Source: Eledone cirrhosa
Taxonomy: Eukaryota
Assembly (NCBI GenBank): GCA_964016885.1
Contig: OZ024741.1
Span: forward strand, 127,100,001 to 127,164,000
Length of the DNA: 64,000 nucleotides
Direction: 5' to 3'
How positions within the stretch are numbered: position 1 is the first letter of the stretch; each line of letters starts with the position of its first letter. Below the pieces are notes generated by a model. That model was given only the letters and a program-made list of their open reading frames with translations. It was not told the origin of the DNA and did no database searches. Position numbers and translations under genes: made by a program. Positions 39,037 through 42,625 of this stretch are shown in pieces.

Positions 39037-39855
39037 TTCTAATATATATATATACATATGTGTCCGTGTGTCCATGTGTGTATGTGTATAAATGTATGTG
39101 TGTGTTTATATATATATATATATAAGTATTTATATATATATATATATATATATATATATAATATATATACATATGTGTGTGTGTCCGTGTGTGTATGTGT
39201 ATAAATGTATGTGTGTTTATATATATATAAGTATTTATATATATAAGTATTTATATATATATATATATATATATATATATATATATATATATATATATAC
39301 ATATGTGTGTGTGTCCGTGTGTGTGTGTGCGTAAGAGAGAGAGAGAGTGAGAGATTAGATCAATATATAGCTATAAATATAGACGTATACACGTACATGC
39401 ACGTATATACGACGCTATTCTTTATCAAGCAGTTTTTATCAAGCCTTTTTCTTCACATAAAGCTATATTGTGGAGTGAACAGGGTGACATTTGTAGTTAA
39501 ATTTAACGTAGTTCAGCGTATTCCCATTCCTACAGAATATCAAAACCAGTGATAACCCTGTCTCTGTTCGTTTATTTACTCAACTCTATGTAAATCGGTC
39601 ACAATACATGCCGTCATATATAGAAATAGTGTTTTTGTGTGTCAATGGATGTTATAGGCCCAATAAACATTGCATTTCTTTCTTTCGTATATATATATAT
39701 CGAATTTATTATTTGTATTTTATTATTTATTATTTGTATATATATATTGGAAAGTGAGGTTTTTTTTACAAAATGAAAAATAACCGAGGTGTCCTACACG
39801 AGTGAAAGTATAAAGAAAAAAAGAAGCCATTTCTATATTATATATATATATATAT

Positions 39856-40250
39856 AGGGAGTGTAACTTGGAGTTACTGCAGGTTCACCCGGGTGAGCAC
39901 TCGATGTTTAGGCTCACTTCTGTGTTGAGATGTACAGCTATACAGAGTGTAATATACTGAAAGGATAACAAGGACGATTGGTTACTCCTTCATTACATTT
40001 ATTGGTAGGTGACGCGCGTTTCGCCACTGATCAGCTCCAGGTTCGATCTGTATCGATCTTACCCGACTCAATAATCGGCAGCTCGACGAACCCTTTTTTC
40101 TTATACCATTTTAAAGGGTTCGTCGAGCTGCAGATTATTGAGTCGGGTAAGATCGATACAGATCGAACCTTGAGCTGATCAGTGGCGAAACGCGCGTCAC
40201 TTACCAATAAATGTAATGAAGGAGTAACCAATCGTCCTTGTTATCCTTTC
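39856..40250. mobile_element. Palindromic PLE foldback with degenerate hammerhead
   Basis: Arms 39959-40095 and 40113-40250; GAAACGCGCGTC half-core; left-only tail next to (TA)n. Confidence 0.85.
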
Positions 40251-40255
40251 TTATC

Positions 40256-40441
40256 GGTGAATTGGCAGTATCGGTAGAGGGTCGGACACCATGCTTTCCA
40301 GCATAGTTACGTCCCTTTACGGTCTAAGTTGAAATCCCGTCGAGGTTAACTTTGCCTTTCATCATTACGGGGTCGATAAAATAAAGTACCAGTAATGTAC
40401 TGGGTAATTACTGGCCTTGTGCTTAAAGTAGAAACAATTAT
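40256..40441 (+). mobile_element. tRNA-derived SINE
   Basis: Close match to 6457-6640. Confidence 0.85.
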
Positions 40442-40574
40442 ATATATATATATATATATGTGTGTGTGTGTGTGTGTGTGTATATATGTGTGTGTATATA
40501 TATATATGTGTGTGTATATATATATATATATATATATATATATATATATATATATATATATATATATATATATA

Positions 40575-40980
40575 TACAATATGTTGAAAAGGTAACACAC
40601 CAGAGAGAGATATATAGTGCGTTATCAATAATACAGGGAAAAAACCACCAGTGTATGGAATCTATAACCTATGAAAGGCAGACTATAGACACGAAAATTA
40701 AAAATATAAATTAAAGCGTAAATAAATACCTCTATAACTATATAACACACGTACAAATCCAAAGATATGTTTCACCAAAAATTTGTTGAAAGAAATGGTC
40801 TAGTCTCGGTTCATCAGCGTGTGTAAGGCTGTATTATTGATAACGCACTATATCTCTCTCTCTCTGGTGTGTTACCTTTTCAACATATTGTATTTTAAAG
40901 AGCTCAGGATCTCTTCTCCTTTGAGCACATTATTTACAGGGAATAGCGAGGGCCTATGCCTCCGTTAATTTATCGTGATA
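40575..40980. mobile_element. PLE foldback with ~60-bp arms and right-only tail
   Basis: 40575-40635 inverted versus 40829-40893; (TA)n flanks. Confidence 0.8.
40745..40824 (-). ncRNA. Type I hammerhead ribozyme with full stems
   Basis: acacacg-CTGATGA-acc...ggt-GAAACatatc-tttg-gatttGTA-cgtgtgt. Confidence 0.85.
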
Positions 40981-41321
40981 TATATATATATATATATATA
41001 TATATACACACAGTTCAAGAGTAACCAATCTTAAAGAGAGAGATTGAGATAGTAGAGGAGATATGAGAGGAAAGATTGGTGAGTTAGTTAGAAGCCAAAG
41101 CGTAAAGCATGTGCTCAATGTGCAATATGCATTAGAAAGCAGCTAGGTGGCTGGGTTCATGCAGAGGTTAGGTGCGCAGAGCTGGAAATATTCATTAGTT
41201 AAGCAAAACAAGACCACAAATTTCACAAGGAAGACATTATTAAAAGATTGTCAACATATTTAGTTTGATGTAAGGAATGTAGAGAATAATAATAATAATA
41301 ATATTAATAATAATAATGCCC

Positions 41322-41440
41322 GTTTACAATTGTTTCGCTACTCCGTATAATATTTCTGGATCAGATGACTATGTATCATAATTGATCTGGTTCAGTTGAA
41401 AATAATTAACATTTAAAAAAACAGAGTGGCTCATCGGAAC
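41322..41440 (-). ncRNA. Hammerhead motif with long stem II insert (U4C)
   Basis: gtt-CCGATGA-gccactctg...cggagtagc-GAAACaattGTA-aac. Confidence 0.6.
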
Positions 41441-41808
41441 TCAAAGGAATATAAATTAAAATAATGTTACATAATATAATGTTCCATATATTAGTTTTTA
41501 CTATGGTGCCTTTGTTTCATCAGCTGTCAGCCATAATCAAGCAGTACTCATCTGTCGAGGCTGCATTGTGTGAGATCTGCCTATGGGTAACAAGATGGCT
41601 GCCAAAGGGCATATTTACCTTACTAATTAGAGGGTGGTTTCAGGGGAAGTAACTTCTCGAAAGATTAGAGATTGTGTGTATTTTATAGTTATGTGCTAGT
41701 ATTTAAATTATTTAATTGAGAAACAATGTAGGGGAGGTAACTTATAATTATCGAGTTGTTCATAGCAATTTAACTTATTAGTTACAATTAGAGATGGGGC
41801 TACTTGAC

Positions 41809-42186
41809 TAAGTTGGGTCAAAAACTCTATTGGCGAAGGAATTAGCCCTTCGATGTTGACAGCTAATGGTTACCTACGTTCTATCGTTAATTGGTAGAGG
41901 TCTTGATAGAGTTATGTAATATGCTTCCGTAACACAGAGATCACAAGATTTCCTTCGTCTATTGAACGGTTGTGCCCTAGCTACGATATCCCATTTTAGT
42001 GAGTGTTGAACTTTGTTTAATTTAAGGTTTTTAATTAGCCTAGCTAGCGATGTCGAACATCTGTTGCTAGGGTATCGGAAGGAAAAAGAGTGCGCATTAT
42101 AGCGTACCTTAAAAGGGTTAGAGGTAGACCCGATATAAGAGCTGGTATTCGAAGCAGTCTCAACTGTGCACCTATAGACTATGTGT
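41809..42186 (-). pseudogene. GIY-YIG endonuclease remnant not in the ORF track
   Basis: Manual translation: IVYRCTVETASNTSSYIGSTSNPFKVRYNAH...LKWDIV...CDLCVTE...CQHRR. Confidence 0.85.
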
Positions 42187-42346
42187 ATACAATCTTTTAA
42201 TAATGTCTTCCTTGTGAAATTTGTGGTCTTGTTTTGCTTAACTAATGAATATATATATATATATATATATATATATATATATATATATATATATATATAT
42301 ATATATATATATATATATATATATATATATGTGTGTGTGTGTGTGT

Positions 42347-42450
42347 GGATGCCCTAAGGACAGACACTGGTCTGTTGGAGACGCAGGACATGGCAGCGAT
42401 AATGAGGGACAGGGACCGCTGGAGAGAACTCGTGCATGGATCTCGGGAAT
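42347..42450 (+). mobile_element. RTE-type LINE C-terminal fragment
   Basis: DALRTDTG...IMRDRDRWRELV. Confidence 0.6.
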
Positions 42451-42473
42451 TTTACCCGCCTTCGATATATATA

Positions 42474-42625
42474 ATATAGAAATGGCTTCTACAGGACTGG
42501 AACTGTTTCATTCGGGAGAAATCATCAGGCAGCCATTTATATATTAAATATTTATACTCTGATATGTATTGAGTAGCTTACTTACTGTGGTTACCCCCAT
42601 TGAACTCGGAATAAACTTATAAATA
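42474..42625. mobile_element. Family C mini-foldback; intact-core hammerhead on the minus strand at 42484-42534
   Basis: ggctgc-CTGATGA-tttctcccgaat-GAAACAG..CTGTA-gaagcc; tail matches 36650-36725. Confidence 0.8.

Follow-up and report, generated by a model that had tools for sequence, protein, structure and literature searches.

Candidate micro-insertions starting at predicted hammerhead cleavage sites among head-to-head repeats of Eledone cirrhosa

The window analysed here is a stretch of 64,000 nucleotides from Eledone cirrhosa (GCA_964016885.1, contig OZ024741.1, positions 127,100,001 to 127,164,000 of the forward strand); all coordinates refer to this stretch. It has the character of animal-type DNA and contains many AT microsatellites, broken non-LTR elements and Penelope-like open reading frames (ORFs). 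A Pfam scan covering eight ORFs yielded matches for a reverse transcriptase (RT) and for a GIY-YIG endonuclease:

27433-29457: RT ORF, Pfam match
43292-43927: GIY-YIG ORF, Pfam match
27433-29457 and 42685-45430: RT/GIY-YIG element
45095-45216: 3' repeat of the RT/GIY-YIG element

Three further endonuclease fragments align over the GIY-YIG motifs; in the Pfam scan, three short endonuclease fragments were unmatched and were assigned by motif instead. A descriptor search identified seven hammerhead-like motifs with a score of at least 15 in the window, compared to none in six shuffled windows. The hammerhead-like motifs represent several families, and many of them occur in head-to-head inverted pairs. 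Sister hammerhead families within the window are physically joined to GIY-YIG ORFs. The endonucleases linked to these neighbouring families possess a CxCX5C linker (5451, 23220) as well as CxxC and CxH motifs (5451) or a CxxC motif (41874), and insertion into (TA)n is seen for neighbouring families. An intron was considered as the cause of an indel near 25061-25146 and was rejected, as no splice ends were found.

A search of the window for the family C 18-mer with at most three mismatches yielded six matches (34736+, 36548-, 36635+, 39823+, 42489- and 42529+), compared to 0.19 expected; none of 100 shuffles reached six, and a profile search of the window revealed no seventh copy. The six copies of family C are short and derive from a unit made up of a predicted type I hammerhead and a tail. 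Their components are as follows, with signed offsets given relative to the predicted cut:

34688..34763, plus strand: solo short-tail copy with core; 5' end at about -48; TG run on one side, TA run on the other
36522..36589, minus strand: short-tail arm with core; 5' end at -40/-39
36589..36744, plus strand: long-tail arm; contains the core as well as the stem I 5' strand; 5' end at -46
39823..39840, plus strand: begins at the predicted cut (+1) and reaches the short-tail end (+18), with a TA run continuing to about 39856
42467..42529, minus strand: short-tail arm; core complete at 42528-42522, cut predicted to fall between 42490 and 42489
42529..42537: stem I palindrome at the foldback junction, comprising the left arm's stem I 5' strand and the right arm's +1 to +9
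42529..42633, plus strand: core-less long-tail arm; its start lies somewhere from the cut to +11; the unique part ends near +90 and is followed by an AT-rich run

The copies are solo or arranged head-to-head and comprise at most about 155 nt. All six 3' ends run into TA-rich repeats, and no direct head-to-tail tandem of family C exists in the window.

Four of the copies carry the full layout of a type I hammerhead, in the order core, 3-bp helix II with a variable tetraloop, GAAA, 4-bp helix III, GUA triplet and bulged helix I; all three helices are present, with helix I open. The cut position that the preliminary description had predicted agrees with this layout. The CUGAnGA core is exact in two of the four core-bearing copies and contains one mismatch in the other two, and GAAA and GUA are present in all four. 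The proportion of paired cells is 100% for helix II, 93.8% for helix III and 70.8% for helix I, where two rows consist of junction sequence. Overall pairing is 84.6%, compared to 29-56% for slid partners, with the structure being drawn from the same sequences. The usual G-C pair at 10.1-11.1 is missing, and all four cores contain U-U at this position; an active axolotl ribozyme with a U-U mismatch at the base of helix II has been described (PMC7229834). Furthermore, a similar hammerhead family of the window displays a compensatory change in helix II (19861 vs 51014). The descriptor scores of family C (10.5 and 8.5) lie under the level at which the shuffles came out clean. Rfam contained no hammerhead match for family C at the gathering score or at E up to 10; the matches at E up to 10 were microsatellite or hairpin miRNA-type noise only. 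In energy folding, the hammerhead is not the minimum-energy fold (z -0.4 to -1.4), and covariation in the 4-row alignment is not above that of shuffles (246/500). It is reasonable to regard family C as a putative hammerhead ribozyme, predicted to cleave itself at the bond given above.

Within the window, family C is not tied to any ORF, and no copy reaches past about -49. The adjacent endonuclease fragment (41874-42252) was considered as the element to which family C might belong as a repeat and was rejected, as this fragment has its own hammerhead near 41324-41480. Family C is likely the terminal repeat of a Penelope-like retroelement. Hammerheads are known from the repeats of such elements (PMC4209133, PMC6765202), and their role there has been called unclear (PMC8557442). 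Several features are shared with published EN+ Penelope-like elements (Poseidon PAc, PMC11167929; Adineta Penelope, PMC3846280; PMC8557442): the terminal repeat carries a hammerhead, copies lie inverted and head-to-head, and they meet at palindromes or microhomologies; a tail, if there is one, is found on a single arm, 3' ends fall at two places beyond the ribozyme, and targets are rich in AT. Differences are the tail extension, which is about 70-90 nt here and 30-40 nt there, and the data for PAc, which favour unprocessed RNA as template, along with the missing tied ORF of family C. The CxCX5C linker, the CxxC and CxH motifs and the (TA)n insertion of the neighbouring families are shared with the Hydra clade (PMC8557442), and the tail spacing of family C resembles that of the 5206/21194 and 61174 families. 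The Hydra assignment is one by motif and applies to the neighbouring families, the protein of family C being absent from the window. With non-LTR retrozymes (PMC7229834; bioRxiv 10.64898/2026.07.22.740005), family C has in common that it is non-coding, contains a predicted type I hammerhead and is probably Penelope-derived. In contrast, retrozymes as described there form head-to-tail tandem arrays with units of roughly 170-400 nt.

According to the preliminary description, family C copies begin at the cut site, a claim that was to fall if other copies showed no preference for this boundary. Two of the six copies (39823+ and 42529+) start at the predicted cut, whereas the other four contain the uncut site and have their 5' ends at -39 to -49. 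The latter boundary, which corresponds to the 5' edge of the ribozyme, is the commoner one in family C, and a preference for the cut is thus partly lacking. The four copies that span the predicted cut are likely to stem from uncleaved RNA. In the foldback at 36589, the arms are joined at -46 and -40 with a 1-nt overlap, and the cut plays no role there. The short left arms of both family C foldbacks end at -40/-39. That cleavage sets the 5' ends of family C as a rule, with 39823 and 42529 as independent cases, is very improbable. Its support is that two of six copies cover the cut, with a family-only P(≥2) of 0.005-0.07, but this value includes 42529, whose position is forced by stem I. Moreover, four of six copies, including the partner arm at 42529, span an intact site, and the rule is largely refuted.

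The 18-mer is exact at 39823-39840. This copy, which had been described as isolated, is fused head-to-head with a minus-strand tail of another repeat:

39731..39822, minus strand: tail of a different repeat family (3' part, about +70 to +150), directed leftward into a TA run
39822..39824: 3-nt microhomology between the left repeat and family C (-1 to +2)

The left repeat is identical in 80 of 89 aligned bases to a paralogue at 38963-39055, also delimited as 38967-39058. Upstream of this paralogue is a degenerate hammerhead-like motif (cut 38897), which is related to the 3' repeat (45095-45216) of the RT/GIY-YIG element. Both tails at the 39822/3 junction face outward into TA runs, and the locus 39731-39856 is therefore a head-to-head fusion of two families. 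The start of family C had been given as ambiguous by one A. The ambiguity is in fact 3 nt (39822-39824), since the next two bases of the paralogue are identical to those that open family C after the cut; there are four possible breakpoints, the cut among them. Of the nine differences between 39731-39822 and the paralogue, two agree in a near register with family C bases that precede the cut by about 25 nt. This post hoc match is a weak hint that an uncut family C strand may have taken part at the junction, and it would speak against a clean run-off. Taken alone, 39823 has a chance probability of 0.08-0.33 among the family C copies.

At the foldback 42465-42633, the right arm matches the 18-mer with two mismatches. 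Both arms share bases of stem I, as previously noted, namely 42529-42537. The left arm (42467-42529) was copied through an intact, uncut site. The start of the right arm had been offered as independent support for a cleavage-defined 5' end. This does not hold, as the same position is forced by any join through stem I. Because the 5' strand of stem I, when reversed, resembles the post-cut sequence, the boundary may lie anywhere from the cut to +11, and two substitutions further blur the position of the crossover. The junction has the length of the post-cut strand, without the bulged base that is present in both informative 5' strands (34688, 36589). This missing base would favour a cleavage-defined start. 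The right arm could be a long product of cleaved RNA or the result of a plain join through the stem I palindrome. The related proposal that two cDNAs are joined by a short complementarity fits the anatomy, namely the different tail lengths and the cross-family fusion at 39822/3.

A further candidate belongs to another hammerhead family of the window:

36828..36849, plus strand: 22-nt fragment, exactly from +1 to the short-tail end, inside an AT run
61174..61347: head-to-head foldback of the family on which the predicted cut of 36828 is based; retains a hammerhead's 3' half, in which stem III is palindromic

The fragment is 100% identical to the post-cut stretch of the 61174 family (E 1.4e-06). 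It has a mismatch at -1, no 5' microhomology and AT runs on both sides, and the stretch to its left has no other copy in the window. The 5' core is absent at 61174..61347, and the cut predicted for 36828 is based on the 3' half-ribozyme together with a relative at 5206-5465, from which the core was deduced. This relative carries a U3-A8 core variant, which has been described for hammerheads (PMC4209133). Fragment 36828 is a cleaner example of a 5' end at the cut than 39823 and 42529, and it gives the main support to cleavage-defined starts as a minority class. It is likely that 39823 and, in the other family, 36828 each represent a dead-end cDNA that has run off the 5' end of a self-cleaved RNA.

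The 5' ends of 33 arms from seven families were mapped by BLAST and seed extension and curated by hand. Loci that are single-copy or unclear were left out (18622, 37311, 4250-4683, 40751, 41324, 48522, 49690, 20388/21011 and the 45216/25729 pair). Seventeen arms start between -50 and the tail, and 16 farther upstream. The cut is covered by three of the 33 arms (39823, 42529 and 36828). For these post hoc tests in a single window, uniform nulls give P(≥3) values of 0.013-0.12; capping the interval widths at 4 changes this range to 0.008-0.03, and omission of 42529 leaves a P(≥2) of 0.06-0.33. A local scan of 20 reference stretches, covering offsets of -12 to +8, returned ten entries. Three are outer ends at the cut (39822 twice, 36828), one is an internal deletion (51259), and the other six reflect related families, 13-mers matching by chance or an indel inside a copy. 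The sole genuine outer 5' ends are located at -1 (39822) and 0 (36828). The local chance probability is 0.009, or 0.07 if the internal deletion at 51259 is scored as a miss; short-tail pieces are detectable only if their start precedes about +5, which biases toward starts near the cut. For the other hammerhead families, the searches of the window revealed no solo post-cut fragments. The signal of 5' ends at the cut is suggestive only, and with numbers this small chance may explain it.

These numbers have to be weighed against the explanation that all copies come from uncleaved RNA and that the starts at the cut are ordinary 5' truncations set by microhomology and a recognition limit. The starts of four of six family C copies and of 30 of the 33 mapped arms lie away from the cut, the probability without 42529 is as weak as given above, and other boundaries cluster off the cuts, at -39 to -49 in family C and at -42 to -45 in the 21194 family. 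Microhomology exists at the candidate starts, with 3 nt at 39822 and stem I at 42529, and both microhomology joins and palindromic inverted junctions are known (PMC3846280); the data on unprocessed RNA in the available text of PMC11167929 point in the same direction. However, 36828 is base-exact at the cut without microhomology, no outer 5' end was found at the other offsets from -12 to +8, and none was mapped between about -20 and -2. We regard this explanation as possible, but less likely than not.

The tails of the copies are not uniform. Family C and two other families have two 3' ends each, at about +18 to +28 and at +90 to +110. In two more families the 3' ends are at +55 and +150, or at +60 to +75 and longer. 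With tail classes assigned by hand, a short arm is paired with a long arm in all nine scorable head-to-head loci of the window, including both family C foldbacks; the loci 39959-40258 and 59885-60212 were not scorable. For Poseidon, reverse transcription is reported to start at two internal sites downstream of the hammerhead (PMC11167929). By analogy, the pairing of short and long tails would match the two internal priming sites known for Penelope-like elements.

A different origin of the inverted loci would be snap-back of a single cDNA, self-primed via stem I or II, or later microhomology deletion between neighbouring insertions. Palindromes do occur at the junctions, and the arms are nearly identical at 19381, 50430 and 39959. 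The families fused at 39822/3 look like different clades, and PMC3846280, as far as its available text goes, prefers self-priming and reports no cross-mobilisation between families. At 42529, however, snap-back was rejected, as the arm lacking the core greatly exceeds the core-bearing arm in length and so is not its copy. Furthermore, the arms of the foldbacks at 36589 (54/59) and 59234 (49/55) resemble each other no more than they resemble unlinked copies, and neither origin sits well with the long/short pairing in nine of nine loci. An origin by snap-back or deletion is therefore unlikely.

The reading that we prefer, with a probability of roughly 0.5, is that the head-to-head Penelope-like insertions mostly stem from uncleaved RNA and that a minority of cut-to-tail micro-insertions stems from cleaved RNA. 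The Poseidon protein nicks AT-rich DNA on both strands in vitro and is predicted to form a dimer (PMC11167929); the protein of the element would act likewise here. Reverse transcription would then be primed at two internal sites downstream of the ribozyme and yield two cDNAs, whose 3' ends would be linked through complementarity of 1-11 nt, helix I included. As priming would take place downstream of the cut, copies with a core would require uncleaved RNA, and cleaved RNA would give rise to nothing but cut-to-tail scraps, 18-22 nt in length from the short site and about 100 nt from the long one. Fragments 36828 and 39823 have the form expected of such scraps. By the same analogy, the preferred reading may be at odds with Poseidon, where cleavage was dispensable in vitro and RNA-seq reads beginning or ending at the cut were absent, according to the accessible text of PMC11167929. 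Quite tentatively, one may go further and propose that cleavage does occur in the germ line and serves as an off-switch that renders the template a dead end, recorded in TA repeats as micro-insertions of 18-22 nt between the cut and the short priming site, and that a dimer primes both strands from two RNAs, even of different families.

In L1 twin priming, two cDNAs from opposite strands result in an inverted insertion joined by microhomology, and both originate from largely non-overlapping segments of one poly(A) RNA. The inverted, microhomology-joined product of two opposite-strand cDNAs is common to that process (PMC2837659) and to the one proposed here. In contrast, the arms in the window overlap by 20-70 nt or stem from different families. 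R2 elements with an HDV-like ribozyme (PMC3774820) resemble the proposed case in that the cleavage position marks genomic 5' junctions and chance microhomology primes the join. They possess another class of ribozyme and another endonuclease, and the R2 cut is the 5' end of a productive full-length template, whereas cleaved RNA would be a dead end here, since the cut lies just upstream of the priming sites. An R2-like behaviour, in which most full copies begin at the cut, is not observed: the proportion is two of six in family C and three of 33 window-wide.

Published descriptions already cover head-to-head inversion, palindromic junctions, joins by microhomology, one-armed tails and (TA)n targets (PMC3846280, PMC8557442). 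In the mostly freely accessible literature, no report was found of Penelope-like genomic fragments that start at a hammerhead cut. While the head-to-head architecture is known, the class of cut-to-tail micro-insertions is possibly new, with two usable examples (39823 and 36828). As written, the finding of the preliminary description does not establish cleavage; it supplies one usable example, to which the window adds a cleaner one. If genomic 5' ends were to peak at the cut, this would reveal cleavage in the very cells in which insertion takes place. Cut sites could then be mapped without bench work, which would open the question to any repeat-rich assembly. Under the tentative off-switch proposal, the in vivo cleavage rate of each family could be read from the sequence by counting such fragments. 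A scan of bacterial and archaeal genomes yielded one match in an unrelated Bacteroidetes sequence, which was taken as chance.

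A 22-nt fragment of the 61174 family (the hammerhead family of the foldback at 61174-61347) occupies positions 36828-36849. Its 5' end coincides exactly with the predicted hammerhead cut, and it is surrounded by an AT run. This fragment is the cleanest example of a start at the cut in the whole window.

Nine loci are arranged head-to-head, and each of them combines one short-tail arm with one long-tail arm, the two 3' end classes downstream of the cut.

Head-to-head short/long-tail loci of the window
19381-19936
21194-21428
21523-25291
36522-36744
42467-42633
50430-51074
59154-59349
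61174-61347
61369-61883

A long TTTTAA hexamer array (24270-24400) is part of the right arm in the 21523-25291 element. The inverted pairs 4250-4683 and 40574-40893 differ in motif layout from the head-to-head majority: their hammerhead-like motifs are inward-facing or confined to one arm.

Several arms share 5' ends that lie away from the cut. Both short left arms of family C, the short copies of a predicted type I hammerhead plus tail, end beside the core at -40/-39 relative to the cut (36589 and 42529); this stop is possibly due to a stall at the helix I duplex. In another family, the 5' ends of the arms (21194-21348, 20318 and 59285) coincide, falling between -42 and -45. At the 21194 locus, the two arms are joined through 19 A and 14 T, as if both cDNAs had ended in oligo(A) through slippage or untemplated addition.

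Other repeats of the window
25515-29457 and 42685-45430: RT/GIY-YIG element, two copies
5206-5465 and 51261-51455: hammerhead with U3-A8 core variant and long helix II
20360-20436 and 20983-21059, minus strand: repeat, two copies
7877-10846, minus strand: non-LTR element, long open frame (989 aa) encoding RT and zf-RVT domains
30477-32052 and 46199-48327: pieces of a different non-LTR family
6453-6659, 40248-40459, 59695-59888 and 63789-63939: dispersed SINE-like repeat

The two copies of the RT/GIY-YIG element are about 92% identical over 2.9 kb; the element has a Neptune-type Cys-rich linker, and near 45216 it contains a degenerate hammerhead-like motif. The U3-A8 hammerhead is located on the opposite strand to a GIY-YIG ORF that carries Hydra-clade motifs, immediately upstream of it; the hammerhead copy at 51259 is internally deleted between about -41 and -9. 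Two subfamilies of one hammerhead with a long helix II are represented by 19800-19861 and 50940-51014; this helix has a C-A mismatch at the base and also displays a compensatory change. The two minus-strand repeat copies at 20360-20436 and 20983-21059 have their termini in TA runs right behind a hammerhead-like 5' core, as if priming had occurred inside helix II.

A second copy of the 989-aa non-LTR element, 70% identical, is found at the window start (1-1706). The other non-LTR family, which presumably possesses a restriction-like endonuclease motif, contributes the fragments that form a foldback at 31824-32052. The SINE-like repeat of about 200 nt has at least four copies in the window, one of which splits the right arm of the foldback at 39959-40258.
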